Below are positions 1,934 to 26,878 of a stretch of 32,000 nt of DNA, piece by piece (positions within the stretch are counted from its first letter, which is position 1; the number at the start of each line of letters is the position of its first letter). The position numbers and the translations under genes are program-made. The stretch is from Flavobacteriaceae bacterium. Lineage in GTDB: Bacteria > Bacteroidota > Bacteroidia > Flavobacteriales > Flavobacteriaceae. The stretch covers positions 3,720,001 to 3,752,000 of the forward strand of contig OZ245049.1 in NCBI GenBank assembly GCA_965224465.1, read 5' to 3'. The notes beneath the pieces were generated by a model. That model was not told where the DNA came from. It searched no databases and was given only the letters and a program-made list of their open reading frames with translations.

Positions 1934-2470
1934 CAGAAATAGCACAAAAACTATCTCGTTTGGTATGTAAGCACAAAAATGAATGGTCTTATACTATGGA
2001 CGAAATAAAACCAGAAGTAAAAGAACGCTGTGATTTTGGTATACAATTAGAAGAAGTTACAGCCGAAAAACAAAAACTAGAAACCGAAAGGGATGATAGT
2101 TTAGCCAAAATGGAAACCAAAATAGAAAATTTAATGTGGTGGGATGAGGCAAGTAAAAAAACCTACACACCACCAGTAAAAGAAGAAGATAAAACAAAAA
2201 CGAGTAGCACCAAAAGACCTTCTATGTTGCCAGAAGGTACAGTGGTAGAAGAAATACCACAAAAAGATGTTGTACCTTTAGACAATAAAACAACAGCAGC
2301 TAAACCAGATGCTAAACCACCGGAAGATAGTATACCAACGACAAGTACAACCGATGCTCCAGCACCAGAAACTAAAGTAGAAGAAAAAGAAGTGCCACCA
2401 GAACGTATGTTTCCTAAAAGCAATATAGTACATCATTTTCATCCAATTGCTTGGGTGGAGCAGATGAAAC
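1934..2470 (+). repeat. copy of the conserved effector pre-toxin module (near-identical to 20756..21304)
   Basis: Direct alignment by eye: CAGAAATAGCACAAAAACTATCTCGTTTGGTATGTAAGCAC... through ...GCTTGGGTGGAGCAGATGAAAC matches 20756..21304, with a few substitutions and one 12-bp indel. Similarity stops abruptly on both sides. Confidence 0.9.
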
Positions 2471-3885
2471 GAATGTATGGAGATTGTAAAGTTTTGAAAA
2501 AAGGAGATAAAAACGAATTAGTTAGAGAAATAAATATCCGTTTAGCAGGTTTTGGAGGAAATGTACCAACTGACGAGTTTACACAACGTACAGTAGATAT
2601 GGTTAAACAATTTCAAAAAGACTATATGAAAGTGGAGCAAACGGGTGTGGTATGTGGTAAAATGTTTAAAGCTATTGATGAGTTTAGTGAGAAGTATGAT
2701 ATATCAAAGACTATTTGGGGTCAATTAGACTGTAGTTGTACAGGAAAAGGCACAAATAAATACAATAAACTAAACGGTAAAAAAGAATTAAATAATTGTA
2801 GTGGTTGGGGAGATAAATCTGGAAAAAGTACGTATAAATCAATAACACATTCAGAAGCAATGCATAAGTATGAATACCCTGGTATTCATAGATCTATATT
2901 ATTTGCCCTAAAAACTATATTATTTTATTTAGATAGTAATAATAATTATTCTTTTGCTCATATTAGTTCTGGCTATAGATGTAGATTTAAAGGATATACA
3001 ACCACTAATCATCAAGGGAAGGCAATTGATATTCAATTTAACAAAGGGGATTGGGAAATAAGGGGACAAGTACATAAGAATATAGCTCCTCTTAAGGATA
3101 TAAAAAATAAAATTTTTAATAAACTTAATGCTAAAACAAGCTGGACTGATAAAAATCAATATAGCTTAGAACCAATTGGCTTAAATGCAGATAATACAAA
3201 AATAAATGGTGGACATACGCATAGTTGGATACATATGGATGTGAGAAAATTTGATGCAGTTTATTTAAAAGACACTTACTTTTGTAAAGATAAATTAACA
3301 TTAAATGGAGAAAGTATTGTTCAACTAGCAATAAATAATAAATACAATGTTGATTGTAATTGTTCTGAATATACCATAACACAAGACTCAAGTGATAGTA
3401 ATGAAGAGAGAGTTGACCCTAAAACTCTAAATGCAAGTGATGATTTAATTAAATTTATTAAAGATTGGGAAAAATTGGAAACAGAAGCATACAATGATTC
3501 TAAAGATTATTGTACAATAGGTTATGGGCATTTGATTAAGAAGAAAAAATGTGAAACTATTACTCTATCTGATGAATTTAAAAATGGAATTGGCGAAGCA
3601 AAAGCAACCGAATTATTTAAAGAAGACTTAAAAGAATTTGAAAAGGCTGTACAGAGATATGTTACAGTTAAATTATATCAAAGAGAATTTGATGCTCTTG
3701 TTGATTTACTATTCAATACAGGAGCTTATTTTTTAAAGAATAATAAAGCTCCAAAGTTATATAAAAATTTACTTGATGAAAAATATGAAGATGCTGCTAA
3801 AGAATTTTTAGATATAGAAAACAAAAAAAGGAGAGAACAAAATTATGAAATATTTATCAATGGAAATTATGACTCGACACATTAA
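1960..3885 (+). CDS. orphan effector module (lacks the ~345-aa N-terminal region of the full-length paralog): pre-toxin module + PG_binding_1-like domain + M15A-type zinc peptidase + GH24 (T4-type) lysozyme
   Basis: The ORF opens at a TTG that is an internal Leu codon in the paralog 19717..22551 ([10 protein letters not shown]); the first in-frame ATG is at 1996. [22 protein letters not shown]...[12 protein letters not shown] resembles a peptidoglycan-binding repeat. SGYRCRF...NHQGKAIDI (H-x6-D) ...SWIHMDVR matches the M15 zinc-ligand pattern. [28 protein letters not shown] is the T4-lysozyme-type E...D...T(I)GYGH motif. Confidence 0.75.
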
Positions 3886-4759
3886 AACAAATCTACTTAT
3901 AATTATTATAATTATATTTTTTCATTCTTGTAAAAAACAAGACAAAAAAACACTATCAAATAGTGTAATTAATGAAATTGAAAATATTAGTATATGGAAT
4001 TACTCATCTAAAAATATAAATGACACATATTCACAAATTCAAATTCAAATATCTAAGGATAGTTTAAAAGTGTATAATATCAATTCAAAAGAATATATAT
4101 GTAAAGGAGAAATAATTAAAAGCGATAGAACATTTGAAAATGATATAAAAACTCAATTAGAAAACAAGCTTTTACTAAAATTAAATGATAATATTGAAGT
4201 AATAGAAAACTCAGAATCTTCAATATCTAAAAAAGGCTGTCAATTCCCTTTTTATGAATTGTTTATATCTAATAATGCTTTATTTTTTTTTGATAAAGAA
4301 TACTATTATTTCACTCAAAAAAAAGAAAGAGTTTCGCAAAAAACCAACTCTAAATTCCCGATAACAAGTGAAAATTTATTAAAAGAAAAAATAAAAACAA
4401 CAAACCATACAAAAGGGTTTGAAAATTATACCTGTGGAGAAGAAATATTAGAATATTATCAAATAGATAGTAAAAAGTGGGTTATTGCTAGTAGTTGTTA
4501 TGATTTTGAATATAAAGATTTAGTAATAATAGATAAGAATAAAAAAATTATTTCTAAATTATTAATTGAAAGAGAAAGTTGGGATATCGAAAAAAAAGAG
4601 CTTGAAGATATTGATGATAAAGAGACTGTAAATTTTGTAATAGAAAAGGATAATAAAATAAAAATTACAACAAGACATTTTCTTAATAAAAAATTATTAT
4701 CTACAATAATTAAAACCTACAAAATAACAGCCCAAGGGAAAATAGAAGAAATAAAATAA
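3869..4759 (+). CDS. lipoprotein, putative immunity protein of the upstream lysozyme-containing module
   Basis: The ORF track starts at 3845. I prefer ATG 3869 ([24 protein letters not shown]) because it parallels MIRHTKRRYLIIVVLFISFISCKKE of 26072..26878. It also gives the same 17-nt overlap with the ...YDSTH* end of the lysozyme gene. Has a lipobox-like Cys. Confidence 0.6.
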
Positions 4760-4820
4760 CATTTATGATTCGACACACTAAGCGAAGGTATCTTATAATA
4801 GTTGTATTATTTATTTCCTT
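4760..4820 (+). other. recombination scar: last ~20 nt of a lysozyme toxin gene plus the first ~50 nt of its immunity gene (matches 26067..26127), cut off by IS30
   Basis: CATTTATGATTCGACACACTAAGCGAAGGTATCTTATAATAGTTGTATTATTTATTTC is essentially identical to the sequence around 26067-26125. Similarity ends where the IS30 inverted repeat begins. Confidence 0.85.
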
Positions 4821-5940
4821 AAATTCAACTAATAAACGCAACTTTTCGATTTGATTCTATGATGGTTATATTTTCAAAACAGAAAAGTAGGAAAACCTAC
4901 CTTTCTTGTCTTGATGGATATGTATCTTACGGTCTCAAATCTCGAAAAAAGAAGTTGTATGAAACACATCACCCAAGCACAAAGATACACAATTTGCTGC
5001 ATGTTAAAACAAGGTTATAAACAGGTTGAGATAGCAGCTGCTATAGGAAAAGACAAGTCTGTTATTAGCAAAGAGATTAAGCGTAATTCAGACAAAAGAA
5101 ATGGAGTTTACAAGCATGAATTAGTCCAAAAAAAGTATGCTAAACGTCATAAAGAAAAGCCTAAAAGAAAACGCTTTACAGAAGATATTCAACAAGCAAT
5201 AGAGTTGTTATTGCGAGACGATTATAGTCCTGAGCAAGTAGTTGGTATCCTAAAAAAACAAGGTAAAGAAACGGTGTCTATTGAGCGTATATATCAGCAT
5301 ATTAGGAAAGACAAGAGGAGTGATGGTGATTTACATACACACCTTCGCAGACAGGGAAGGAGATATAGAAAACGTGGCTCATCAAAGGGTTCTAGAGGGG
5401 TTATAAAGAATCGCATTAGTATAGAACAACGACCTGAAGTTGTTGAACAAAGAAATCGATTTGGAGATTTAGAGGTCGATTTAATCATAGGTAAAAACCA
5501 TAATCAAGCCATACTTACCGTAAATGATAGAGCTTCTGGAATGCTTAAAATGAAAAAAGTAAGCTCTAAAGAAGCAGTTGTTGTCACCAAAGCTATCAAT
5601 GAAATATTAGAAGACTGGAAGCCTTATCTACATACTATAACAGCTGATAATGGAAAAGAATTTGCAGGCCATGAGCAGGTTGCAGAAAATTTATGTATTG
5701 ATTACTTTTTTGCGCATCCATATCACTCTTGGGAAAGAGGATCTAACGAAAATTTAAATGGTTTGATTAGACAATATTTTGCCAAAGGAAGTGACTTTAC
5801 AAACCTAACAGATCAAAGAATCAAAGAGGTAGAAACAAAATTAAATAACAGACCTAGGAAGAGACATAAATATCAAAACCCTATATTTGTAATGGAACAA
5901 TTATTATTTAACTAAAAGTTGCGTTTGTGACTTGAATTCA
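4820..5940 (+). mobile_element. IS30-family insertion sequence (complete, ~1.12 kb)
   Basis: Imperfect ~26-bp terminal inverted repeats: AAATTCAACTAATAAACGCAACTTTT at 4821-4846, and AAAAGTTGCGTTTGTGACTTGAATTC at 5914-5939 (22/26 match by eye). They flank a single IS30-type transposase ORF. Confidence 0.85.
4959..5915 (+). CDS. IS30-family DDE transposase
   Basis: [26 protein letters not shown] (HTH), ...[22 protein letters not shown]..., ...ITADNGKEF..., ...[25 protein letters not shown]-like are hallmarks of IS30 transposases. Start chosen at the MKH... ATG rather than the upstream alternative at 4911. Confidence 0.9.
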   Translation: [318 protein letters not shown]

Positions 5941-6264
5941 GCTTATGTCTTTTAAAGCAAAATTAAAAGTAGGTGGACAAGAGTACAATGTATTGTCTTG
6001 TTCTTATGAATTACATCAAGAAACTGATGCAACTGGAAGACCATCTTCTATCACTAGAGGTGGGAAAATTAGATTAACGGTTGAGTCTACAGCAGACACA
6101 AGTTTGTCTGATTGGATGTTTAATAACTTTGAGCGTAGAGACGGTTCTATTGTTTTCTTAAAAAGAGATACCGAAGCTACTGCAAAGGAATTAAAGTTTT
6201 CTGAAGGTTATATGGTGAAATATCGTATCCGTCCGACGAAGTACGTATAGGAATTAAAAATACA

Positions 6265-6297
6265 TAAAAAAACCTCGATTTATTGATCGAGGTTTAA
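6265..6297 (-). terminator. hairpin plus T-run at the end of tnpC (inside the IS66 end); copies at ~27100-27125 and ~27835-27860
   Basis: On the minus strand: AAACCTCGATCAATAAATCGAGGTTTTTTTATG. This is a 7-8 bp stem (CCTCGAT/ATCGAGG) overlapping the stop codon, followed by T7. Confidence 0.5.
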
Positions 6298-7965
6298 ATT
6301 TTGTGGAAATAGCTCACTTAATTTTTGAGCATTGTAATCAGGGATTATATCCAGTATTTTTTTCATCCATTTATAGGGGTTTACTTGGTGTTTTTTACAA
6401 GTCCCAAAAAAGGAATAGAACATCGCTGCATTTTTTGCAGCATCATGGCTACCTGCAAATAAATAATTTTTACGTCCAATAGCTAATGTTCTGATAGATC
6501 CTTCTACTAGGTTATTATCTAGTTCTAAAGTACCGTCATACAGGTAGGCTTTTAAGTAGTCCCATCGTTTTAATGTATAAGTAATTGCTTTTCCTAGTGG
6601 ACTTTTCGGTAAGCTTCCTTGGGTGTTATGGATCAACCATTTTATAAATGTATCCATTATTGGTTGTGCTTTATCTAGGCGATAAGCATGCCGTTGCTCA
6701 GGAGTAAATTCCTGTTTTTTACAATGTCGCTCAATGGCATATAATTGTTGAATGAGTACCATCGCATGACTCGCTTTTACTTTGTCATAGTCTAGTGCTT
6801 TCTCAAAATAACGACGTGCATGTGCCATACACCCTACTAAAGTGACATCTTTTTTATGTGCAAATTCATCATATACAGCGTAGCCATCTGTTTGTAAATA
6901 CCCTTTAAAGTTTTTAAGCATTTCTCTAGGTCCATGTTTAGATCTAGAGGGACGATAATCAAACAATACCATTTTTTGTATGGGTGAATAGTACACCCAA
7001 TGATATCCAGTATGAGTTTTTCCTTTTTTCTGTTTGTCTAGCACTGGAATAGTTGATTCATCGGCCTGTACATATCCTTGTGACAGCACCGTGTTTTTCA
7101 TAGCCTGATACAGCGGCTTAAGTAAGTGTCCTAAGCTGTTTTGCCATCCATTTATTGTAGATGAACTTATAGAGATTCCTTCTCGTTTAAAACGTTCTAT
7201 CTGTCGATAATACGGTAAGTGATCTAAGAATTTATCAATCAATAGCTGTGCTAGCAGGCTGTTTGATGCTACAGATTTTTCAATAGCAAAACTTGGTAAA
7301 TCAGCCATAATAACGGTCTTAATACCTAAAGGGTTTCCATTGTCAATCAATGTGTCTTGTACTTTCTTTTTTAAGGCGTATTTTGGTCTGACATATCGTT
7401 TTATGTATAGCTTTGTGGGTACAAGTTCTAATTTATCTGTAATTTCTTCACCTATTTTTATTCGGTTCTCTATAGTCTCTTTAGGCTCTAAATTAATAAT
7501 TTCAACAGGTAAATGACTGGGGAGATTTAAACTTCCAATCGTTCTTTTTTTAGCCTTTTTACGTTGATATGTAATGTTTACAGGAGCTTCTTCTTCCTGG
7601 GGCATCTCTTTTAAAACTTCGAAAGGGAGTTGCATTTGAAAAGGGTTATTAGCCATTATAAAACGCTCACGTTTTGTCCCAAAAATCATACGACGTAATT
7701 GCTCTAATTGAAATTGTCCATATCCGTATTTTGTCTCTAATTCTTTATATTGAGCTTCTAGGATAGCCTTTTGTAAAGTAACGTCTTTTGTCTTTATAGT
7801 AAGTAACTCATTCTTTGCGCTAAGAGAACTTGTCTTTGTATTAAGTAACTCATTCTTTGAGCTAAGAGAATTTGTCTTTTTGATAAGTAAATCTGACTTA
7901 GAATTAGCCTCCTGTAATAGGGCTATAAGTGCTTTTTTTGATAGCTGTTCTAAGTCTTTTTCCAT
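6280..7965 (-). CDS. tnpC: IS66-family transposase TnpC
   Basis: 561 aa. N-terminal coiled-coil/leucine-zipper-like region, ...CMAHARRYFEKAL..., ...NNLVEGSIRTLAIGRKNYLFAGSH... are typical of IS66 TnpC. Confidence 0.9.
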   Translation of the reverse strand: MEKDLEQLSKKALIALLQEANSKSDLLIKKTNSLSSKNELLNTKTSSLSAKNELLTIKTKDVTLQKAILEAQYKELETKYGYGQFQLEQLRRMIFGTKRERFIMANNPFQMQLPFEVLKEMPQEEEAPVNITYQRKKAKKRTIGSLNLPSHLPVEIINLEPKETIENRIKIGEEITDKLELVPTKLYIKRYVRPKYALKKKVQDTLIDNGNPLGIKTVIMADLPSFAIEKSVASNSLLAQLLIDKFLDHLPYYRQIERFKREGISISSSTINGWQNSLGHLLKPLYQAMKNTVLSQGYVQADESTIPVLDKQKKGKTHTGYHWVYYSPIQKMVLFDYRPSRSKHGPREMLKNFKGYLQTDGYAVYDEFAHKKDVTLVGCMAHARRYFEKALDYDKVKASHAMVLIQQLYAIERHCKKQEFTPEQRHAYRLDKAQPIMDTFIKWLIHNTQGSLPKSPLGKAITYTLKRWDYLKAYLYDGTLELDNNLVEGSIRTLAIGRKNYLFAGSHDAAKNAAMFYSFFGTCKKHQVNPYKWMKKILDIIPDYNAQKLSELFPQNLNLDQ

Positions 7966-8033
7966 ACATTAAAAATACGAAAAATATACATGAACAGCCT
8001 GGTTTTATTAGGTTTTTTACCTGTAAAAAGACA

Positions 8034-8375
8034 TTAATAACGTTTCCTTTGTTGGATGTTTTTTATAGACAGTCCATCAAGAAGCATCACCATTTGGCTG
8101 TATTTCATTTGTATACTTCCTTTCAGATTATCATACACCGGAAGTTCAAAAGTACCTCGTTCCAATCGTTTATAATACAGTACAAATCCACCTGCTTGCC
8201 AATGCAATAGTTTTATTTTGTTTCGAGGTTTATTTATGAAGATAAAAACAGCTCCATTACTAGGATCCTCTTCTAAATTATTACGGATAACACCTGACAA
8301 ACCATTAAATCCTTTACGCATATCTGTGGGTTCTAGGTACAGATGAAAATCAAGTTCACTTGAAAGATTTAGCAT
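8034..8375 (-). CDS. tnpB: IS66 Orf2-like protein TnpB
   Basis: 113 aa. TDMRKGFNGLSGVI...KLLHW...GFVLYYKRLERGTF matches the IS66 orf2 family pattern. Lies directly upstream of tnpC. Confidence 0.85.
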   Translation of the reverse strand: MLNLSSELDFHLYLEPTDMRKGFNGLSGVIRNNLEEDPSNGAVFIFINKPRNKIKLLHWQAGGFVLYYKRLERGTFELPVYDNLKGSIQMKYSQMVMLLDGLSIKNIQQRKRY

Positions 8376-8376
8376 A

Positions 8377-8685
8377 TTACAAATGAATTAAATTTTGTAA
8401 ATCGATAAGTGTAATCTCTTTGTTAATGACCAAATTTACACCTGTTGGATACTCGATTTTAAAACTATCTAAAATAGAATTTCTGCTGTTTTCAATAGGA
8501 GCATCAATAAGTTCAACCTTTGAAAATCCACTGGCATTTTTGGAGGTCAATTTCTTATTCCAGTACCTAAATTTACAAAGTGTAATTTTATGACTTTTAC
8601 AATAATCTTCCAAGGTTAAATCACTCAACTTCCAATCGGAAACAACAGCTGTCATATAGGCTCGTTTTTCTTCGTTTTTTCTCAT
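8377..8685 (-). CDS. tnpA: IS66 Orf1-like protein TnpA
   Basis: 102-aa ORF abutting tnpB (stop/start 1 nt apart) in the first position of the IS66 operon. Assigned mainly by position and size. Confidence 0.7.
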   Translation of the reverse strand: MRKNEEKRAYMTAVVSDWKLSDLTLEDYCKSHKITLCKFRYWNKKLTSKNASGFSKVELIDAPIENSRNSILDSFKIEYPTGVNLVINKEITLIDLQNLIHL

Positions 8686-8896
8686 GCGTCAAAAATAGAA
8701 GCTATTTTTCCACTAAAAAATATGGGGATGGTCGGACGGATACGAAATATCTAGAGAATTTTGATTCTACAGGTAAAGATCCAATGTCAGAGTCATTTAT
8801 CATTTCAGCAAAATCTGTTGCAATGGGGAATGGTGAACATGTAAATGATTGGGTGTAATACCGTTTTAACTATAGTATAACATATCTATGGAAATG

Positions 8897-8928
8897 AAAA
8901 GGAAGTGTTATATGACACTTCCTTTTTT
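8897..8928 (+). terminator. rho-independent terminator after hcp1 (locus 1)
   Basis: AAAAGGAAGTGTtatatgACACTTCCTTTTTTGCG: ~10-bp perfect stem followed by a T-run, 40 nt after the hcp1 stop. Confidence 0.75.
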
Positions 8929-8969
8929 GCGTTTAATTTAATTAGTTTAACAAAAATAAATACTATAAA

Positions 8970-18863: not shown

Positions 18864-19658
18864 ATGATAGATACTAAAAACAAAGAAAGTTTTAATTTCA
18901 AACGCCCTATTACCCATACCCAATACAAACATGGCGATAAAGAAACCAAAAAAGGAGGATTTAGCAGAATGTTGCCTATGCGTATAACAGATAACAAGCA
19001 AATTGTAAGAAAAAGTGATGTAGGTACTAAAGGGGGCTATCCCTTTGCTACTGATGTTTTTTTAAAATGTCCTATCAATCCTAAGATAATGCCATTATGG
19101 TTGGGTAGCCTATTTTTATTTTTATTTTTATCGGGTATTTTAATTATGTTGAGACCTAGTCAGCTTAAAATTGAATTGCCAGTAATTATTATGACGATAG
19201 TGTTTTTTCTAGGATTTTTGTTTTTTGCAACCTATTATTTTACGATGCCAACAAAAGAGCTTGTTTTTAATAGAGCGGACGGTTTGGTTACTTTCCCTGG
19301 GTTTATGTGGCATAAAAACATAACAATGCCTATACATAAAATGATGTTTTCTATGTCATCGCCTAGTACGCAAGGAGGAGGCGCTTATATGTTGCAAATT
19401 GTACGACCAGACAGGACGTATTCCTTGTATTTGTGTTCCTATGGGCTTAGTTGTTATGAAGATTTATCATTCTTTTTATGGTATATGGATAAGAACAGAC
19501 CATTACCTACGGGGGAAGGTTTTGATCCGTGTCGTTTACAAGATTATGAACGTAGAAAATCTGAGGGTTTCCCTAAGCCATTATTTCCTTGTAGTTTTGA
19601 AACTCCAGAAGCTACGCTTGAACAACAGGCAGAACGTGAGCGTATTGGCGGTTGGTAA
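18864..19658 (+). CDS. 2-TM membrane protein, paralog C
   Basis: 264 aa. Same architecture as A and B, with a unique TM1/loop/TM2 segment (FLSGILIMLRPSQLKIELPVIIMTIVF). Confidence 0.7.
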   Translation: MIDTKNKESFNFKRPITHTQYKHGDKETKKGGFSRMLPMRITDNKQIVRKSDVGTKGGYPFATDVFLKCPINPKIMPLWLGSLFLFLFLSGILIMLRPSQLKIELPVIIMTIVFFLGFLFFATYYFTMPTKELVFNRADGLVTFPGFMWHKNITMPIHKMMFSMSSPSTQGGGAYMLQIVRPDRTYSLYLCSYGLSCYEDLSFFLWYMDKNRPLPTGEGFDPCRLQDYERRKSEGFPKPLFPCSFETPEATLEQQAERERIGGW

Positions 19659-19716
19659 AAGTTGATAGCGCAAAGCAATGTATTCGCGCGGATTTTAAAT
19701 CCGCGCCAGTAACTGA

Positions 19717-22551
19717 TTGTCTGCTAAGAATGTTTCGCGGAAAGGTTTACGGAAAAAGGTGATTTATGCATCATTAGAAAATACAGATGATGTTTTTGAG
19801 TTTTTAAGTAATGAAAAAAAAGATGGAAAAGAAGAACAATATTTTACAAATATTAAAGCAGGAACAAAATTAAAAACAAGCCTATCTTACAAAGTAGACA
19901 TTAAAGCAAATACACCCATAAAAGTACTTAAAATTAAAGGAGATTATGCACAAATAAAAGTAACATCTATTACTGCAACCTTAGTTAGAGATACCGATAT
20001 TAATGATAACGTAAAACCATTTAATAGCAATAAACTTTATACTATCAAAAATCTTACTACGGTTAATAAAGCATTTAATGGTCTTGCAACTAAAGATGCC
20101 ACATTCAATACAAAACAAGTAAAAGCACCAAGAAATTGGAGAACAAATTTAAACAGAACTGTTACCTTTTACCCAAATGGCTATGGTAAAGTGATTTGGA
20201 TAGAAAAAACATCTATTTCCAAAATAGCAGAAAAAATAAAAAAAGAAGCAGGTATAATTACCTCAATTATTCCTGACTATTTTTTAACAGAAGAACAAAA
20301 ATACGAAACAGTTGAAAGAGAAGCCAAAACAGGAGAAAAAACTACATTATATGTAGATGTATGTAAGGCATATATCGAAGTCCCTTTTAGAACCGATGTA
20401 GAAGAAGTAACTGTAGAAAAAGAAAAAGTAGTTGACTTACGTAAATTTAAAAAAGCAAAAGACGATAAAAAAGACCTTTGGTATAAAGTAGTATTAGATG
20501 ATACAACTAGTAGCCAATGTGTAGCAGTAAAAGGCTGGGTAAAAGAAAAGGATCTTGACAAATTTAGCGCTTACGATTGGCAAAAATTTGGTTTTAAAGA
20601 TCTAGACGCAGGTAATGAATACATATACTCTGTAAAAGACTTATGTAAGGCAACAGATAGTACCGATTTTGTAACCGAAATTTGGGATAAAACAATAGAT
20701 ACAGATGGCAATAAAGTATTAGATATACTAGAGCTTATTAGAGCCTTTAGTAAACCAGAAATAGCACAAAAACTATCTCGTTTGGTATGTAAGCACAAAA
20801 ATGAATGGTCTTATACTATGGACGAAATAAAACCAGAAGTAAAAGAACTCTATGATTTTGGTATACAATTAGAAGAAGTTACAGCCGAAAAACAAAAACT
20901 AGAAACCGAAAGGGATGATAGTTTAGCCAAAATGGAAACCAAAATAGAAAATTTAATGTGGTGGGATGAGGCAAGTAAAAAAACCTACACAGCACCCGTA
21001 AAAGAAGAAGATAAAACAAAAACGAGTAGCACCAAAAGACCTTCTATGTTGCCAGAAGGTACAGTGGTAGAAGAAATACCACAAAAAGATGTTGTACCTT
21101 TAGACAATAAAACAACAGCTGTTAAACCAGATGCTAAACCAGATGCTAAACCAACGGAAGATAGTACACCAATGACAAGTACAACCGCTGCTCCAGCACC
21201 AGAAACTAAAGTAGAAGAAAAAGAAGTGCCACCAAAACGTATGTTTCCAAGTACAGATATAGTACATCACTTTCATCCAATTGCTTGGGTGGAGCAGATG
21301 AAACTTGTTTTTGGGGAGGGTGGCGGAGATTGTGAATCTCTTATTTGGGGAAATAAAGTAAGTTGTGAATTTAGAAAACGAGTAATTCAAATATCTAAAC
21401 GTCTTGAATGCGATCCTAATCATTTAATGGGAGCTATGGCATTAGAAACTGGAGGGAAATTTGACCCTAAGGTCGATAATGGTTTAGGTAAAGACAAAGA
21501 TGGTATTGGTTACATCGGCTTAATTCAGCTTGGAAATGATGCTATAAAAGATATGAATAGGAATTATTTTCTACATAGGGCGAAAATTAAAAAGAAAGAT
21601 TTAAGAGCAATGTCTGCCGTAGAGCAATTATGCTATGTAGAATATTATTTAGCCAAACATAAAGGTAAACTTAAAACCTTAGCAGATTTTTATTTAGCAA
21701 TACTTTGGCCAGATGCAGTAGGTCACGGTAATGAACCTAATTATATTGTTTTCGATGATGAGGCTAGTGGTAATAAGAAAAGAGCATATTTCTCAAACCC
21801 TACGTTTTTTAGAGAAGATGATGAGTTTAAGAAAAATAGTAAGGGAAAAATATACGAAAGACATGGTAAAACAGGAGGTAAAACGTATGTATGGGAAATA
21901 GCTGAAGCCATACAAGAATGGTATGATAAGGGAGTGCCTGAAAAAAACACTTCTAGTAACTGTACTTGTAATACAAATTGCTCATGTTGTAAATGTATTG
22001 ATTTAACAAATAAGGTTATTTGGATAAGTCAGTTTAACAAAAGTGAACGTAGAAGTAATGGCACTATGAAAACAGATGGATGCTGGAGAACTTCCCAAAA
22101 ATTATTAATGGATGCAGGCTTAAGTAAAACTTCGGGTTATAAAACAGGGATGATTATAACAGCATTAGAGGATGATGCTCATACTTCTTTATCTTTGACA
22201 AAGAGAGTAAAAGATGGTGTCGATTATATTGACTCTGAACTAGAAAAAGGAAATCCTGTCTTAGTTGGTCTAAATCACACCATTAACTATAGACGCAATG
22301 GTAAAATAATTAATGCAGACTCCTCACTAGGAGACCCAGGAACTACAGATCATTATGTGGTTGTCATAGGTAGAGGATGTGAAAAAAATAAAGTGTATTA
22401 TCGTTTTTATGAAGTAGGTACAAGTTGGGCACATTATGGGCAAAACTCTAGAAATAAATTATTTTTAGGAAGTGACTTTTCTTTAAAGGGAAGTCCTGGA
22501 AATAATAAAGAAAAAAAATATACAGTAAGTCAAGTACGAAAAAATCAATAA
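19717..22551 (+). CDS. full-length T6SS cargo effector: N-terminal ~345-aa delivery region + conserved pre-toxin module + lysozyme-like (SLT-type) domain + Cys-rich linker + papain-like Cys/His amidase-like domain
   Basis: 944-aa ORF. The start is uncertain (TTG 19717 or GTG 19759; no in-frame ATG nearby). LMGAMALETGGKFDP...GYIGLIQLGNDAI resembles the E-S/T ... GLMQ motifs of lytic transglycosylases. DGCWRTSQKLL ... TDHYVVVIGRG is a Cys...His arrangement like the papain-fold peptidoglycan amidases/C39-like peptidases. aa ~347-529 equal the module at 1934..2470. Confidence 0.75.
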   Translation: MSAKNVSRKGLRKKVIYASLENTDDVFEFLSNEKKDGKEEQYFTNIKAGTKLKTSLSYKVDIKANTPIKVLKIKGDYAQIKVTSITATLVRDTDINDNVKPFNSNKLYTIKNLTTVNKAFNGLATKDATFNTKQVKAPRNWRTNLNRTVTFYPNGYGKVIWIEKTSISKIAEKIKKEAGIITSIIPDYFLTEEQKYETVEREAKTGEKTTLYVDVCKAYIEVPFRTDVEEVTVEKEKVVDLRKFKKAKDDKKDLWYKVVLDDTTSSQCVAVKGWVKEKDLDKFSAYDWQKFGFKDLDAGNEYIYSVKDLCKATDSTDFVTEIWDKTIDTDGNKVLDILELIRAFSKPEIAQKLSRLVCKHKNEWSYTMDEIKPEVKELYDFGIQLEEVTAEKQKLETERDDSLAKMETKIENLMWWDEASKKTYTAPVKEEDKTKTSSTKRPSMLPEGTVVEEIPQKDVVPLDNKTTAVKPDAKPDAKPTEDSTPMTSTTAAPAPETKVEEKEVPPKRMFPSTDIVHHFHPIAWVEQMKLVFGEGGGDCESLIWGNKVSCEFRKRVIQISKRLECDPNHLMGAMALETGGKFDPKVDNGLGKDKDGIGYIGLIQLGNDAIKDMNRNYFLHRAKIKKKDLRAMSAVEQLCYVEYYLAKHKGKLKTLADFYLAILWPDAVGHGNEPNYIVFDDEASGNKKRAYFSNPTFFREDDEFKKNSKGKIYERHGKTGGKTYVWEIAEAIQEWYDKGVPEKNTSSNCTCNTNCSCCKCIDLTNKVIWISQFNKSERRSNGTMKTDGCWRTSQKLLMDAGLSKTSGYKTGMIITALEDDAHTSLSLTKRVKDGVDYIDSELEKGNPVLVGLNHTINYRRNGKIINADSSLGDPGTTDHYVVVIGRGCEKNKVYYRFYEVGTSWAHYGQNSRNKLFLGSDFSLKGSPGNNKEKKYTVSQVRKNQ
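20756..21304 (+). repeat. conserved pre-toxin module (master copy inside the full-length effector), ending with the [21 protein letters not shown] junction
   Basis: Near-identical to 1934..2470. Contains a 12-bp tandem duplication CCAGATGCTAAA x2 (PDAKPDAK, ~21127-21150) that is single in the other copy. Confidence 0.9.
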
Positions 22552-22555
22552 CTAA

Positions 22556-23359
22556 ATGAAAAAAATAATATTCTTATTCTGTCTAAGTTTTGTTTTGATT
22601 TCTTGTGATAATAAAAATCAAAATAATCATTCTAAATTTCAAAGAGAAAATAATCATACGAATCCCGATAGCAAAGTAAGTAATGTCAGTTTAAAAGGTG
22701 ATTTTTACGACATAGAGGAATTTAAAAATTTTATCAATAAAAAATGGGTTGATGTAGGAGATGAGAATCCGTGTCATCCCTATAGTCAAAGTGTAACTGT
22801 TAAAAATGGATATGTATATGAATATAATACTATAGAACCTTCAGAATATAAGATAGATACGATTGTAGAAATTGATTTAAAAACACTAAGTATAAAAATA
22901 GAGAATAGCTTAAACCGTGATGTTATATTCAAAGTAGAAGTCTTAAATTTTAAAGAAAAAATTGTAAAGTGGTCTTTAAATGAAAAATCTTTTGTAGCAA
23001 AACCGTATGATGATGTTTGTAATATTGAAGAAAAAGAAAAGATAAATGAAAAGAATACCTTTAGCAATGATTGGAATGGTTTTTATCAATTTACGAATGC
23101 TAAAGAAGATGAAGATTGGAGAGAAGGTAAAGATTACGATTTGTATATTTCTTTAGATTCAGTCAATCTAAAAAGTTATGGGTACCAACATTTAAGAAAT
23201 ATAAAATGTTATGTGAGACAGAAAGAAGATAGCTTGTTTATTTATAGTTTAGATAAAGAATATGGGCTTTTGTTAAAACTTTTTGTTAAAAATGATAAAT
23301 ATGTTGTTTCATCTTTGATCGATAAAAAAGATTTGTTTGAAGTTGTAAAAAAGTATTAA
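22556..23359 (+). CDS. lipoprotein, putative immunity protein of the 944-aa effector
   Basis: Starts 4 nt after the effector stop. MKKIIFLFCLSFVLISCDNKN is a lipoprotein signal. No recognisable domain. Confidence 0.6.
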   Translation: MKKIIFLFCLSFVLISCDNKNQNNHSKFQRENNHTNPDSKVSNVSLKGDFYDIEEFKNFINKKWVDVGDENPCHPYSQSVTVKNGYVYEYNTIEPSEYKIDTIVEIDLKTLSIKIENSLNRDVIFKVEVLNFKEKIVKWSLNEKSFVAKPYDDVCNIEEKEKINEKNTFSNDWNGFYQFTNAKEDEDWREGKDYDLYISLDSVNLKSYGYQHLRNIKCYVRQKEDSLFIYSLDKEYGLLLKLFVKNDKYVVSSLIDKKDLFEVVKKY

Positions 23360-23395: not shown

Positions 23396-24058
23396 TGGGA
23401 GGCCTTAAAAGAAACACGTCAGCATCATGATTTATCACTACCAGAGGGCTTAGAAGTATTACTGCAAGCTGAACAGTTATATCATGAAAATAGGCGTTTT
23501 GAACGCTTAAAACGAAGTGCTAAGTTTAGATATAGTGCCAGTATAGAGGAGTTAAACTTTGAAACCTCTAGAGGCTTAAATAAATCACAAGTGACCTAGC
23601 TTGCAACGGGAAACTACATTAAAAACGGAGAGTCAATACTTATAACAGGCTCCACTGGATTTGGTAAAAGCTTTACAGCATCGGCATTGGGACACAGAGT
23701 ATGTTCTCAAGGAGTAAAGGTGTTATACTATAACCTTCAAAAACTACTCACCATTATTAAAATGGCACGTATTGATGGAAGTGTTTTTAAGCTATTGGAG
23801 AAAATATCAAAATCTGGATTATTGATACTCGACAATTTTGGAATAACTCATTTAAATAACCAGCAACAAATGGATTTAATGGAACTAATTGAAGATCGAC
23901 ACGGAAAATCATCCACCATAATAGCGAGTCAATTACCCGTGGAAAACTGGTATGAAATCATCGGAGAAGCAACCATAGCAGACGCCATTTTGGATCGATT
24001 AGTACACCGCTCTCACCGAATAGAATTAAAAGGAAAAAGTCTAAGAAAAAAACTGTAA
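23396..24058 (+). pseudogene. istB: IS21-family helper ATPase IstB, 5'-truncated with an in-frame stop
   Basis: The reading frame gives ...RFERLKRSAKFRYSASIEELNFETSRGLNKSQVT*LATGNYIKNGESILITGSTGFGKSFTASALGH... (Walker A), LLILDNFG (Walker B), ...ADAILDRLVHRSHRIELKGKSLRKK. TAG stop at 23597-23599. No istA gene is adjacent. Confidence 0.85.
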
Positions 24059-24171
24059 CTTTTTCAGTATCTCATTTTTAAGACCAAAATCTACAGAGGG
24101 GTCAACATCATCGGAATATCTACCTTTTCAATTAGAAAAAAATGATTAATTAATAACAAAGTACTAGAACG

Positions 24172-24663
24172 GATGTTCAAGTACAAATATAGTACATCAC
24201 TTTCACCCTATTGCTTGGGTGGAGCAGATGCGGAGAGTTTTTGGAGATAATGGTATTTGTGTTTGTGATGCTAGTGTTAGAGCATATATGCGAATGTTGA
24301 GAGTTGGTGAAGGTACAGAAAAAGAAATAGGATATACAACTATGTATGAGTAAGCATCCTGAAAAGGTAATTACTGCGGGAAAATATTCTTCCTCAGTTG
24401 TAGGTTCTGGGTGTGAAGAAGGAAAAAGATTCTATAATTTTTTTGATGTTGGTTCTAAAACTAAAGAAAAAGGTACTGACACAAAGAACAAATTATTTAT
24501 TGACGATAATTTGCTTATTTCAGGAAAAAGTAATGGAGGGACATATAACTACACAATAACAGAGGTAAGAAAAAACAACAAAAAAAATATTAAAAATGAA
24601 ATTATTTATAATTTATGTACTGGCTATCAGTTTGATATCATGCCAACAAAAAAATTCAAATAA
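24172..24663 (+). pseudogene. decayed mosaic orphan toxin cassette: junction motif + N-terminal GH104 fragment (frameshifted) + C-terminal tail of a papain-like amidase domain
   Basis: 24172-24230 repeats the MF..(2-bp deletion)..[15 protein letters not shown] junction. Then RRVFGDNGICVCDASVRAYMRMLRVGEGTEKEIGYTTMYE* follows (lambda R-like ...AFLDMLAWSEGT...GY). After a +1 shift comes SKHPEKVITAGKYSS (lambda R ...SDHPRKLV...GAGRYQ). Then VVGSGCEEGKRFYNFFDVGS...YTITEVRKN parallels VVIGRGCEKNKVYYRFYEVGTS...YTVSQVRKN of the 944-aa effector. Confidence 0.7.
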
Positions 24664-25411
24664 TACACAAGATTTTAAAGGACATACTTTCCTTAAAGTT
24701 ACTAAGATAAAGTCTAAAAAAGTATTATATAAGCCATGTTATGCATCAATAGAAACATATAAATTTTATAAAGACTCAATATATCACAACTGGGGTCAGG
24801 AACATTATAATTTTAAAGGTGTATATATAATTAATAACGATGGTAGCTTTTTATTCAAAGGGCTTAATAAGAATTTTTCGAAAAATGAATATACTTTAAA
24901 AATTAATAAAGTAAAAGGTACAGATTTTTTTTGGTATATAAATGATGATATTTTCATTGATAGTCTTAATATCAAGCAAATCCTTTTTGAAAAAGAAATT
25001 TGCGAAGAAGATATTAATAAGCCTATAAAAAACAATCATCAAATCCTTGATATTAATGGAAGTTGGAAAGTAACATGTATAGAAGATAAATCTGCTTTAT
25101 TAATCTTTGATAAATCAAGAGGGTATTTAGATATCCGAATTAATAATGATTATGCAAGAGTTAGTGTTGATATAAAAGAATATAATCATATTTATAATCT
25201 TAAATATAATGTATTAACAGGTATAACTCGACACAACGAGTTCGTTGATTGGTTAGATATTTCACATGATAGTATTATAGGTAACTTTACTATAAAAGAT
25301 AAGAATATAAAATTTAATTGGTTAGGTTTCTATAATATGAAAACTAGAAAAAGAGAACTTAATCAAAATATTTTTGAAAAAGAGTCTATATTATTAAAAA
25401 AATGTGACTAG
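24596..25411 (+). CDS. lipoprotein, putative (orphan) immunity protein
   Basis: MKLFIIYVLAISLISCQQKN is a lipoprotein signal. The C-terminal FNWLGFYNMKTRKRELNQNIF...ILLKKCD is homologous to the C-terminus of 921..1847. Confidence 0.6.
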   Translation: MKLFIIYVLAISLISCQQKNSNNTQDFKGHTFLKVTKIKSKKVLYKPCYASIETYKFYKDSIYHNWGQEHYNFKGVYIINNDGSFLFKGLNKNFSKNEYTLKINKVKGTDFFWYINDDIFIDSLNIKQILFEKEICEEDINKPIKNNHQILDINGSWKVTCIEDKSALLIFDKSRGYLDIRINNDYARVSVDIKEYNHIYNLKYNVLTGITRHNEFVDWLDISHDSIIGNFTIKDKNIKFNWLGFYNMKTRKRELNQNIFEKESILLKKCD

Positions 25412-25490
25412 AAAACACCATCAAAATGTATGTTTCCTAAAAGTAATATAGTACATCACTTTCATCCTATTGCTTGGGGGGAGCAGATGA
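25412..25490 (+). repeat. fourth copy of the pre-toxin junction (..[20 protein letters not shown])
   Basis: ATGTATGTTTCCTAAAAGTAATATAGTACATCACTTTCATCCTATTGCTTGGGGGGAGCAGATG aligns with 2403-2466 and 21238-21300, with one T>G change (W-V-E to W-G-E). Confidence 0.85.
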
Positions 25491-26088
25491 ATGGCTATTA
25501 TGGTCTGACTTAATCAATCCAATGAATATTTTAAAAGAAGGATGTAAAAGTACTTTTAAAAACAAAAATGACGATACTAAAAGAGTTAATCCTAAAACTT
25601 TGAATACAAGTAAAAAAGGAATCCAATTTATTAAATATTGGGAAAGTTTCAAGAGTGAAGCATATAATGACTCTGAAGACTATTGTACAATAGGTTATGG
25701 GCACTTAATTGCCCGTGATAAATGTGAAAACATTACTTTATCTGAAGGATTTAAAAATGGAATTACTAAAGAAAAAGCAACCGAATTATTTAAAGATCGT
25801 CTAGTAGACTTTGAAAATTCTATTCAAAGAGATATAAGTGTTGATTTGCATCAATATGAATTTGATGCATTAGTTAGTTTGGCTTTCAACACAGGTTCAA
25901 ACTTTTTAAATACTGGAGGAGCAGGAAAAGGAGAGACCCAAATAAAAAAGAAAATTAATAATGAAAACTACTCTGAAGGAGCTGATGAAATGGGTGATGT
26001 AACTAATAATGGAACAAGTGGCTTAGTAAAAAGAAGAAAAGCCGAAATTAATATTTTCAAAAATAACATTTATGATTCGACACACTAA
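25474..26088 (+). CDS. orphan GH24 (T4-type) lysozyme toxin module; no own upstream ATG and out of frame with the junction motif that precedes it
   Basis: [28 protein letters not shown]...YEFDALVSLAFNTG... is homologous to the C-terminal domain of 1960..3885 and ends with the same ...IYDSTH*. The junction frame (codons from 25454) terminates at TAA 25511, while the lysozyme frame is shifted by one nt. The first internal ATG is at 25522. Confidence 0.65.
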   Translation: MGGADEWLLWSDLINPMNILKEGCKSTFKNKNDDTKRVNPKTLNTSKKGIQFIKYWESFKSEAYNDSEDYCTIGYGHLIARDKCENITLSEGFKNGITKEKATELFKDRLVDFENSIQRDISVDLHQYEFDALVSLAFNTGSNFLNTGGAGKGETQIKKKINNENYSEGADEMGDVTNNGTSGLVKRRKAEINIFKNNIYDSTH

Positions 26089-26878
26089 GCGAAGGTATCT
26101 TATAATAGTTGTATTATTTATTTCTTTTATATCATGTAAAAAAGAAATAACAAAAAATAATACTGTAGAAAAATCTACTAAAAAAATAAATATACAAGGT
26201 TTTTGGAATTGTACAAAAACCGAAAAAGACAAACGATTTACAACAAAATTCGGGGATTTATATACTCAAGAATTTCAACTATATTCTAAGTTTAGAATTA
26301 AAAATGACTCCATCTATATTGGAGAATGTCAAGAAGAAATATTTAAATATAAATACGCAACTAAACCTAAAAAGTATGGTGATGAGAGTGTTTTTTTAAT
26401 TAAAGCAAAAAATATTGACAGCATTTTAATTGTTTCGACGTATGAAAATAAAAATAATTCTTGTATTCCTTTAGGTAATTTAACTTTTTATTTAAATAAT
26501 AAAAATGAAATAATAATACATGATAGAGGTTGTTTTTTTACTTTTACTAAGTTTAATAGAAAGAGTGAAATATGTAATAGTATAGGTTTACCTGGGAATA
26601 ATCGAAATTATTGGAATGTTGAATGTAAGCTAAAAACAAATGAATTACATGAAGCTTATGAAATGTTTAAACAAAAATATCCATATGCATCGAAAAACTT
26701 GAAGAGTGTATTGCCAAAACGAAACTACACCGATAATAAAAACAACATAACTTATACTGTGAAAAAAAATAATGTAATAATACAAAAATCTGATCCCTCA
26801 GGTATAATTTATATTGAATTAAAGCAACTGAATAAAAATTATCAACTAAAATATGAAATGAAATTCCCTGAATATTAG
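26072..26878 (+). CDS. lipoprotein, putative immunity protein of the orphan lysozyme module
   Basis: MIRHTKRRYLIIVVLFISFISCKKE is a lipoprotein signal. The start overlaps the lysozyme stop by 17 nt, exactly as in the 3869/3885 pair. Confidence 0.6.
   Translation: MIRHTKRRYLIIVVLFISFISCKKEITKNNTVEKSTKKINIQGFWNCTKTEKDKRFTTKFGDLYTQEFQLYSKFRIKNDSIYIGECQEEIFKYKYATKPKKYGDESVFLIKAKNIDSILIVSTYENKNNSCIPLGNLTFYLNNKNEIIIHDRGCFFTFTKFNRKSEICNSIGLPGNNRNYWNVECKLKTNELHEAYEMFKQKYPYASKNLKSVLPKRNYTDNKNNITYTVKKNNVIIQKSDPSGIIYIELKQLNKNYQLKYEMKFPEY

Follow-up and report, generated by a model that had tools for sequence, protein, structure and literature searches.

The WHIX domain, named after a WHxxxH motif, is a secretion domain of type VI secretion systems (T6SS) (PMC12135965, Fridman et al., PLoS Biol 2025). 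It is bipartite, comprising residues 31-126 and 271-476 of the Vibrio alginolyticus protein WP_005373349.1, and the whole domain suffices for secretion through the T6SS. According to the proposal of its authors, it caps a spike protein at the C-terminal tail. Its fusion partners are nearly always toxins that target peptidoglycan, and proteins with signal peptides are encoded downstream; membership of the class was assigned by RPS-BLAST with a WHIX position-specific scoring matrix (E<=1e-6, >=70% coverage) (PMC12135965). Here we analyse 32,000 nucleotides from a Flavobacteriaceae bacterium (contig OZ245049.1, positions 3,720,001 to 3,752,000; hereafter the window, in which all coordinates are given). 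The source genome is marine (Bacteroidota, Flavobacteriia-like), and the window covers a spike/effector region of a T6SS of Bacteroidota type; within it a 944-aa open reading frame (ORF; 19717-22551, + strand) contains a block of sequence that recurs elsewhere. We consider it probable that the window carries toxin/immunity cassette arrays of a WHIX-class polymorphic T6SS cargo effector, in which toxins are swapped at the end of the loading domain and 5′-truncated cassettes (orphans) stay behind downstream, able to recombine back.

The repeated block and a probable WHIX boundary

A direct repeat of ~540 nt on the + strand connects the 944-aa ORF (20756-21304) with a second site near the left end of the window (1934-2470). 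The two copies are ~97% identical; a 12-nt indel within a KPDA-coding repeat and a few substitutions set them apart. Identity starts at CCAGAAATAGCACAAAAAC, within the reading frame, and ends a few nt past GAGCAGATGAAAC. Shorter junction copies (60-75 nt) lie at 24159-24232 and 25418-25491, and a four-way alignment showed that the junction copies are conserved through CAGATG and unrelated beyond. A 31-nt core, ATAGTACATCAYTTTCAYCCWATTGCTTGGG, occurs four times on the + strand (2425, 21259, 24189 and 25448) and was found in none of 100 dinucleotide-preserving shuffles. An earlier note on this DNA had described a repeated block with a sharp end, which the alignment and the shuffle test bear out, and two extra junction copies; both are present, although the third continues for only 44 in-frame codons and the fourth is out of frame with the GH24 lysozyme ORF beside it. 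The copy within the 944-aa ORF encodes the C-terminal part of the WHIX-like domain, comprising the LVCKHKNEW strand, helices, a linker rich in P, T, K and E, and the junction (21259-21300), and the copy at 1934-2470 encodes the last ~180 codons of that domain (motif core 2425-2466). The copies outside the 944-aa ORF retain ~180, 9 and 14 codons before the motif. Judged by its sequence, the repeated block is the tail of a WHIX-type loading domain, and it would mark the point at which toxin and immunity genes are exchanged.

The assignment to WHIX comes from full-length relatives of the ORF, which were compared with the prototype WP_005373349.1 (sequence taken from the authors' AlphaFold file). 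The relatives P0131 (1264 aa) and P0013 (1047 aa) begin MRVSYPLKD...GKYPIGAHNAWHGGIHLEG...YSNGFILIQH...FYSLYHHLMPESDI, and their WHxxxH motif reads W37-H38-G-G-I-H42, with W37, H38, G39, G40 and H42 invariant in 41 sequences; region 1 of the prototype reads GRYLIGQGYGWHSGIHLTS...YSNNFVLIEH...FYTLYMHLAPPSDI. This region is 38% identical to the start of P0131 over 96 aa (BLASTP, E=4e-16), and a family profile aligned with it at a probability of 99.5% (hhalign, E=2e-22). The start of region 2 also matched (IKVSAGEDIGYMG...VHIEMFS in the prototype, IPIKAG..IGYTG...THLEVFT in the family; E=3e-5). At its end the prototype has KFSWMQDL, an 11-residue linker and SLWHYWPF (WHYWPF being residues 471-476), followed by VGNHTQSKCFCNRD, the start of a chitinase-like toxin; the Bacteroidota proteins have L.FW.E, a low-complexity linker of 40-100 residues and VYHFHPIAF-VEQM, followed by ..CFCNRD in GH19-type alleles. 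Vibrio proteins that are 91-98% identical to the prototype up to WHYWPF then continue into pesticin (P0137), lysozyme-like (P0142) or chitinase-like toxins. These comparisons indicate that the family is a member or close relative of the WHIX class, and that the junction seen in the window probably corresponds to the published C-terminal boundary of WHIX (residue 476). The delivery module, which had not been recognised when the window was read alone, thus appears to have a known counterpart.

By eye, WHGGIH and THLEVF resemble sequences of M23/LytM peptidases, whose metal ligands are HxxxD and HxH, and an M23 origin of WHIX region 1 was considered; it was set aside, as no profile or structure match accompanied the resemblance, and the N-terminal region had no M23 match in Pfam (P0013 matched SH3_3 only), in a profile search of PDB sequences or in Foldseek. 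No Bacteroidota are named, and neither recombination nor truncated toxin cassettes are mentioned, in the WHIX paper and the supplementary material searched (PMC12135965), the papers citing it, as far as searched, include none on these subjects, and a literature search for the motif string returned nothing relevant. Within the literature searched, a Bacteroidota/T6SSiii branch of WHIX with an enlarged domain and a small PAAR neighbour therefore appears to be new, as do an explicit junction motif and widespread orphan arrays for a cargo-loading domain.

An AlphaFold prediction of the module (15-sequence alignment; mean predicted local distance difference test score, pLDDT, of 68) gave a helical domain, a short strand LVCKHK (77-82), a disordered linker (~142-230) and, at the domain end, the junction as a strand IVHHF (236-240) and a helix (242-253). 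Residues C79, H81, E84, W85, H239 and H241 (module numbering) are invariant or nearly so. Members in which the Cys is replaced by Val or Ile often lack the second His of HFH too, and the same holds for the Vibrio prototype (V...W); a Cys/His clamp between two strands of the module is possible. The N-terminal 510 residues were predicted as beta-rich domains, including SH3-like ones (pLDDT 87). Foldseek searches of the PDB with the module model and with the N-terminal model gave no significant match, and profile searches of PDB sequences with the module gave weak EF-hand matches only, to an EF-hand-like loop. The junction motif is conserved at the protein level across four orders and, taken with the predicted strand and helix, this suggests that its conservation is at least partly structural and that the motif is more than a recombination device.

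Orphan cassettes in the source genome and in other genera

The extent of the family was revealed by an exhaustive phmmer search (residues 280-540) against 1.84 billion representatives; word-indexed protein searches had very low recall (12, then 3, then 7 matches). The phmmer matches formed 120 clusters at 50% identity, from marine Bacteroidota, mostly of 900-1500 aa with the module at ~560-900. The motif is present in 87 of these clusters with the consensus R.FP....V[YWH]HFHPIA[FW][VI][EN][QH]M[KR], and the sequence that follows it differs from protein to protein; most remaining clusters have variant motifs, for example WHFEPFAW or YYFHPIAF. Among 67 members, Pfam identified M23, CHAP, GH24, GH19, pesticin, GH108 with PG_binding_3, YkuD, DUF5675 and SLT tails, to which PDB matches add lambda lysozyme, C39-like and lytic transglycosylase tails, and the common part gave SH3_3 and EF-hand matches. 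The module and the N-terminal region are covered by no Pfam or NCBIfam model. Hallmarks of Rhs, CdiA and MafB proteins (YD repeats with DPxGL, VENN, the MafB N-domain) gave no Pfam or NCBIfam match in the window ORFs or the 67 family members. A tblastn search of plasmids returned toxin-domain matches and one match to the module, on a Capnocytophaga plasmid.

At least 11 module-bearing paralogs are encoded in the source genome. A word-indexed search returned 12 proteins, all from this genome (a 5,241,564-bp contig), and the 11 that carry the module split right after EQM[KR] into different tails: lytic transglycosylase with C39-like peptidase, GH19-like with CHAP, lambda lysozyme with either C39-like or M23, and PG_binding_1 with an unassigned domain plus a lysozyme, either GH24 or another. 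The module haplotype of P0008 is identical to that of P0009 although their toxins differ, while the 944-aa ORF and P0005 share a toxin and differ at 6 of 16 informative sites in the module; all four gametes were found at two module sites of the source-genome alleles. One full-length gene of this genome seems to be split into P0012 (510 aa, ...AEKIKKN) and P0002 (...KNKKKLDIITS...), at an A-rich KIKKK run that is intact in P0131 of the related strain; a sequencing error, pseudogene formation or phase variation by strand slippage could each account for it. Exact-sequence look-ups of contigs for P0012, P0001 and P0003 gave no match, and genomic context came from P0131. Another source-genome protein, P0136, is an orphan with the commoner F-type junction (NVYHFHPIAFVEQMKLL) and a C39-like toxin, indicating that two WHIX-like subfamilies coexist in the genome.

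A motif scan of one genome per species identified 54 loci, to which the related strain (locus L055) was added. The 54 loci come from Aquimarina, Cellulophaga, Tamlana, Tenacibaculum, Olleya, Fulvivirga, Xanthovirga, Saccharicrinis, Labilibaculum, Marinifilum, Plebeiibacterium, Prolixibacteraceae, Saprospiraceae and others. When the T6SS proteins of the window were used in tblastn, matches upstream of the effector were found for PAAR at 43 of the 54 loci, for VgrG at 28 and for Hcp at 11, with the PAAR domain ~480 nt upstream of the effector start. The tblastn result was initially read as a specialised PAAR effector, with PAAR fused to the effector, and this was ruled out by ORF maps, which show PAAR (153-161 aa) encoded on its own, between vgrG and the effector gene, with the lipoprotein gene last. 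This gene order is consistent with the family being a cargo effector.

At 25 of the 55 loci, 2-5 copies of the motif lie on one strand, representing a main gene and 1-4 orphan cassettes truncated at the 5′ end. The main copy has 650-1125 codons upstream of the motif, orphans have 7-210 codons before a stop is reached, and each orphan motif is followed by a tail of 170-460 aa. Main genes and orphans were compared in 43 pairs (40 from array loci and 3 from the window): mean nucleotide identity was 87% in the 60 nt before the junction and 38% at nt +15 to +135 after it, with ungapped 5′ homology of 30-390 nt and 3′ homology mostly of 0. The variable residues preceding the motif (FPxxxx) are the same within a main gene and its orphans and different between species. 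Of 86 ORFs that follow a toxin tail, 64 carry a lipobox and a further 14 begin with a different signal peptide or a transmembrane segment (78/86 together). Taken together with the mosaics of the source genome, these sequence comparisons support the view that toxin and immunity genes have been exchanged at the junction recurrently over evolutionary time.

Several proposals of the earlier note can be judged from these data. It had suggested searching the motif and module across proteomes, and the 120 clusters do carry diverse domains C-terminal to the junction. Its polymorphic cargo-effector logic is upheld by the main-plus-orphan arrays of many genera and by the mosaic module/toxin combinations of the source genome. 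It had also asked whether a lipoprotein gene always follows the toxin; a lipobox supports this for 64 of the 86 ORFs, and 14 begin with another signal peptide or transmembrane segment.

A mechanism can be proposed that accommodates these observations. In the intact arrangement vgrG is followed by a gene for a small PAAR (~155 aa), then by the effector gene (~1000-1300 aa) and last by the gene of a lipoprotein, the presumed immunity protein. The first ~850 residues of the effector would constitute a loading domain of the WHIX kind, built from a WHxxxH region, SH3-like beta insertions and a second region containing an EF-hand-like loop, the LVCKHxSEW strand and helices, followed by a disordered low-complexity linker; the domain would close with the strand and helix V[YWH]HFHPIA[FW]VEQM[KR], directly after which a peptidoglycan-degrading toxin would start. 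By analogy with proteobacterial WHIX, shown to dock on a VgrG tail, the loading domain would dock on a spike protein, here probably the C-terminal tail of the adjacent PAAR. Since all alleles share one and the same loading-domain end, the upstream DNA would stay homologous and the downstream DNA exchangeable. New toxin/immunity modules would enter by recombination in the conserved 3′ part of the loading domain, and displaced modules would stay downstream as 5′-truncated orphans, silent until recombined and able to recombine back. The toxins would act in the periplasm of the target, and the lipoproteins would protect kin.

Cassettes and T6SS genes of the window

The 944-aa ORF itself reads as a WHIX-type effector truncated at its 5′ end. 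Its homology to full-length relatives begins at codon 23 (nt ~19783), which corresponds to their residue 340. BLASTP against P0013 gave 92% identity across 345 aa (query 5-348, subject 318-662); true identity begins at TDDVFEF, and the first 22 codons are unrelated to P0013. A test for the WHxxxH motif was negative, WHIX region 1 and the start of region 2 being missing. The first 357 codons contain no ATG, and the start codons available there are TTG and GTG only. A perfect GC-rich hairpin, CGCGCGGATTTTAAATCCGCGC, lies at 19685-19707, between the last of three two-transmembrane genes and the ORF; it resembles a terminator, which speaks against expression of the ORF by read-through. The ORF is set apart from VgrG by a PAAR-HetC toxin gene and three probable immunity genes, and the small PAAR gene of the family is not adjacent. 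The lack of ~340 N-terminal residues and the position behind an unrelated PAAR-HetC toxin suggest a displaced orphan; the ORF is probably the longest orphan of the array and not a working effector and, without WHIX region 1, it would be incompetent for secretion on its own. In the likeliest history, the small PAAR gene originally present and the 5′ third of the effector gene gave way to the PAAR-HetC toxin and its immunity genes. In the related strain (L055) an intact order is seen: PAAR (153 aa), a 1264-aa effector, an immunity gene, an orphan, a DUF5991-like lipoprotein gene and IS66. The orphan of that strain starts 15 codons before the motif and has the same toxin type as the 944-aa ORF.

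Downstream of the junction, the 944-aa ORF encodes a lytic-transglycosylase-like toxin domain (21343-21855, + strand; PDB 9udh 'lytic transglycosidase', E about 1e-19 to 3e-19) and a peptidase C39-like or papain-like domain of amidase type (21925-22545, + strand; PDB 9jdd and 9jg8, E about 3e-27 to 1e-26), and these PDB sequence matches back the SLT-like and papain-like domains that had been read from the sequence. The entries 9jdd, 9jg8/9jg9 and 9udh are solved structures that are apparently unpublished, a literature search by PDB code having given nothing relevant; the 617-aa chain of 9jg8 has another N-terminus, without the WHIX-like module. The candidate immunity lipoprotein of the ORF (22556-23359, + strand; lipobox FVLISC) has a weak Pfam match to DUF5991 (1.4e-3), and a DUF5991-like lipoprotein gene also follows the same toxin in L055.

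The remaining cassettes of the window lie on the + strand as well, and the copies are, by sequence, truncated spares and not a complete weapon. The left-end array runs from the 3′ end of an M23 gene through a lipoprotein gene, the ORF at 1960-3885 and a second lipoprotein gene to IS30 and an Hcp gene truncated by IS66. The gene at 1-891, cut at the window start, is the 3′ end of an orphan cassette equal to P0007 (WHIX 3′ fragment, junction, lambda-lysozyme-like domain and M23 peptidase); its ORF at 76-891 matches Pfam Peptidase_M23, and P0007 (546 aa), which ends identically, has the module and the junction. Directly 3′ lies its candidate immunity lipoprotein (921-1847), with the N-terminal lipobox ...IICLFSC. 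The orphan ORF at 1960-3885 is identical to P0006 (641 aa) and comprises a WHIX 3′ fragment, PG_binding_1, an unassigned middle domain and a GH24 lysozyme. Peptidoglycan binding, M15 and GH24 had been proposed for it; Pfam confirms the first and last (PG_binding_1, Phage_lysozyme), whereas M15 is not supported by Pfam or the PDB, the middle part having no match in the PDB search. A candidate immunity lipoprotein with a lipoprotein-type signal peptide follows (3845-4759).

To the right of the 944-aa ORF, its lipoprotein gene is followed by part of an insertion sequence (IS), by two short cassettes that each include a lipoprotein gene, by a decayed CHAP-like piece and by a second, Hcp-Hcp-VgrG group (28591-31708). 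The first short cassette (24159-24663) is decayed: its junction (24189-24230) is followed by 44 codons of a lambda-lysozyme-like start, a stop, and a C39-like C-terminal piece in another frame (24346-24663), the lambda lysozyme assignment being taken from the homologous full-length tail of P0008 (PDB 1am7, E=1e-16). In the second (25418-26088), the junction copy (25448-25489, IAWGEQM) is out of frame with the GH24 lysozyme ORF (25474-26088), and a T-to-G change creates a G6 run. Candidate immunity lipoproteins accompany both (24596-25411, lipobox AISLISC; 26072-26878, lipobox FISFISC). Lipoprotein-type signal peptides are present on 5/5 downstream ORFs in the window (921, 3845, 22556, 24596 and 26072). 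A fifth toxin remnant, CHAP/TIGR02594-like (27160-27516), matches the tail of P0031 from ATTPPWMEVALAEAKK onward, TIGR02594 having been found on a related tail; it lacks a junction, has Ser in place of the catalytic Cys (STAWSASF) and is disrupted at the 3′ end. A repeat of 84 nt, 92% identical between 4753-4836 and 26060-26143, covers the end of the GH24 toxin gene and the start of the immunity gene (MIRHTKRRYL...), and at 4753 only this stub is left before IS30, a trace of another lost cassette.

The T6SS genes comprise two VgrG genes, three complete Hcp genes with a truncated copy, and one PAAR toxin gene. In the first set, on the + strand, an Hcp (TssD) gene (8970-9365; Pfam TssD, 3e-47) precedes a VgrG gene (9451-11271; Pfam Phage_base_V and Phage_GPD), a DUF7738 gene (from 11261) and the PAAR-HetC toxin gene (11869-16649; Pfam PAAR_motif and Het-C). 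The last is split (11869-13833 and 15357-16649) by a 477-aa DDE transposase (13913-15346; Pfam DDE), which may have knocked out the toxin of this spike set. The first 143 aa of PAAR-HetC are 52-56% identical (BLASTP, full length) to small PAAR proteins encoded beside full-length family members, and this identity extends into the C-terminal tail IPFPKI...GNSLKEAQENQEK. Three tandem genes follow (repeats D1-D3, 16838-19658, + strand; ~1.01-1.03 kb each, 90-98% identical), encoding two-transmembrane proteins of 260-264 aa with a weak NCBIfam match to a Bfi2-family T6SS immunity model (9e-8, below the cut-off); they are probably amplified immunity to the HetC toxin.

The two Hcp-VgrG units (8848-11271 and 29291-31708) are 95-100% identical up to about VgrG residue 540, after which the C-terminal tails differ (SLTINATETIDIAAKN... 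and SLYIQATENIEFQAKN...), a divergence that suggests different cargo specificity. The Hcp copy at 5945-6250 has the same sequence as 28591-28870, beyond which a complete IS66 unit (6280-8685) interrupts it. Other IS elements are IS30 (4911-5915), an IS66 end fragment (27794-28199) and an IstB-like fragment (23687-24058, judged by eye). The spacer between the two Hcp genes of the right-hand group (28975-29296) contains two tandem repeats, with units of 111 nt and 51 nt that each occur twice.

Alternative readings and comparison with known systems

Several observations weigh against a WHIX-class effector with a living cassette reservoir. The comparison with WHIX was made with a single prototype sequence, and strong homology is confined to region 1 and the start of region 2. 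Over the stretch with the repeated block the match is weak: the middle of region 2 (FIVKHPTDW in the prototype, LVCKHxSEW in the family) is collinear but reaches only E=0.004 and a probability of 8%, and the equivalence of WHYWPF and YHFHPIAF was drawn from collinearity and inspection. The pairing of strands in the module and the metal site are sequence-level proposals at a mean pLDDT of 68. T6SS dependence and the partnership with PAAR are read from gene order, and the intact main genes of the source genome are known from protein records and from the related strain. No direct recombinant stands behind orphan-main recombination on an observable time scale; what the mosaics show is past exchange. 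Finally, two of the four window cassettes are decayed (the third truncated, the fourth frameshifted) and IS30, IS66, IS4-like and IstB-like sequences interrupt the cassette region, both of which fit simple decay equally well.

Decay is indeed the basis of one alternative, in which the junction is kept only as the structural end of a domain and the orphans are dead remnants, with at most the orphan immunity genes being relevant. The state of the third and fourth cassettes, the loss of the junction and catalytic Cys from the fifth, the break-up of the region by IS elements, the lack of a plausible start and of WHIX region 1 in the 944-aa ORF, and the conservation of the motif as protein across orders would all be expected from it. 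However, many orphans in other genera have intact toxin ORFs of 170-460 aa, each with a lipoprotein gene, and the 5′ tracts of orphans are 85-100% identical to the resident main gene while the same residues vary between species; in addition, the same module is found with different toxins and the converse, pointing to repeated exchange within one genome. Intact orphans and homogeneity within loci argue against decay as the full account, and we regard it as unlikely. The earlier note offered a different picture, with the 944-aa protein as an active cargo effector, delivered through its N-terminal 345 aa and the module, and the other copies as spare C-termini. The frame is open for 944 codons, it lies ~8.4 kb 3′ of vgrG on the same strand, and its toxin domains and immunity gene look intact. 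Yet every full-length relative has ~340 additional N-terminal residues, including the invariant W-H-G-G-x-H and other residues of WHIX region 1, the homology starts abruptly at codon 23 with nothing but TTG and GTG as starts in the first 357 codons, and PAAR-HetC with three immunity genes intervenes before VgrG, the small PAAR partner gene being absent beside the ORF. Paralogs in the protein database, such as P0005 and P0006, have MVCKHKNEW as their first residues, and the database search gave no entry for a 944-aa product. These points speak against a delivery-competent N-terminus in the 944-aa ORF, and this picture seems to us decidedly improbable.

It has also to be considered that the motif leader is a secretion or processing signal, serving as a cleavage or recognition site, and that the orphans are independent small effectors. 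Conservation is far higher in the 20-residue motif FPxxxxVYHFHPIAFVEQM than in the preceding linker, and many orphans keep little else upstream. But several orphans have only 7-30 codons between the stop and the motif, leaving the need for a start codon unmet, AlphaFold places the motif as a strand beside the conserved LVCKH strand, and in proteobacterial WHIX the whole domain, not a peptide, suffices for secretion (PMC12135965); we give this proposal very little credence. Cassette arrays of a WHIX-class effector, with exchange at the end of the loading domain, remain the reading we favour. A broader form of it, in which the WHIX boundary is a dedicated toxin-swap junction of both T6SSi (Proteobacteria) and T6SSiii (Bacteroidota), the silent orphans of marine Bacteroidota are a recombination-activated store of peptidoglycan toxins and immunities, a lineage-specific Cys/His (CxH...HxH) site clamps the junction strand onto the domain and the domain docks on the tail of a dedicated small PAAR, is tentative and on balance doubtful.

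If the reservoir interpretation is right, this would be the first recombination-activated cassette system on a T6SS cargo-loading domain instead of an Rhs/CDI-type (contact-dependent inhibition) carrier. A secretion domain characterised only in Proteobacteria would now be linked to the distant T6SSiii of Bacteroidota, a connection suggesting that the two have in common an old mode of peptidoglycan-toxin loading onto the spike. The motif HFHP[IV][AG]F.. may serve as a sequence handle with which to catalogue toxin/immunity pairs in marine Flavobacteriia, Cytophagia and Marinilabiliales, and the orphan arrays offer a tractable system for asking whether cargo effectors diversify by cassette recombination as Rhs and CdiA do. 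For annotation, the 944-aa ORF illustrates that a long open frame can turn out to be a displaced fragment and not a working effector.

Among known systems, the WHIX effectors (PMC12135965; prototype WP_005373349.1, and Awe1 of Aeromonas jandaei) are the closest. Both groups have WHxxxH at the same N-terminal position and what appears to be a bipartite domain with an insertion that ends at W/Y-H-x-[HW]-P-x-x-F, directly followed by the toxin; nearly all C-terminal toxins are directed against peptidoglycan (the WHIX list includes chitinase-like/GH19, pesticin, lambda lysozyme and NlpC/P60), a gene with a signal peptide lies downstream, and the genes stand beside VgrG or PAAR. In contrast to the WHIX paper, which covers proteobacterial orders only, the family described here occurs in Bacteroidota with T6SSiii-type genes (TssD family PF17642), and it forms arrays of 5′-truncated orphans. 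The Bacteroidota domain has about double the length and contains insertions of SH3-like type, a loop resembling an EF-hand and a low-complexity linker of 40-100 aa before the last strand; its HFHPIAFVEQM extension and Cys/His pattern are lineage-specific, and its constant neighbour is a PAAR of ~155 aa with a conserved C-terminal tail, whereas in WHIX the VgrG tail takes this place.

With Rhs, CdiA-CT and MafB the family shares a conserved delivery part and a variable toxin separated by a short invariant motif, an immunity gene after each toxin, and downstream orphans whose 5′ homology permits recombination with the main gene. It has no sequence relation to them, however, its carrier is a T6SS cargo-loading domain and not a shell or filament, and no autoproteolytic function is indicated for the junction. 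MIX, FIX, RIX and PIX are similar in being N-terminal marker or loading domains fused to diverse C-terminal toxins, but they are unrelated in sequence and none of the four was detected here. The auxiliary clusters of Vibrio cholerae (Kirchberger et al. 2017, PMC5361080) offer a parallel for the arrays, as their modules recombine in conserved upstream sequence and older ones are left downstream; there it is mainly orphan immunity genes that stay (PMC5361080), whereas in the Bacteroidota arrays the toxin-coding parts, with a defined junction, are kept too.

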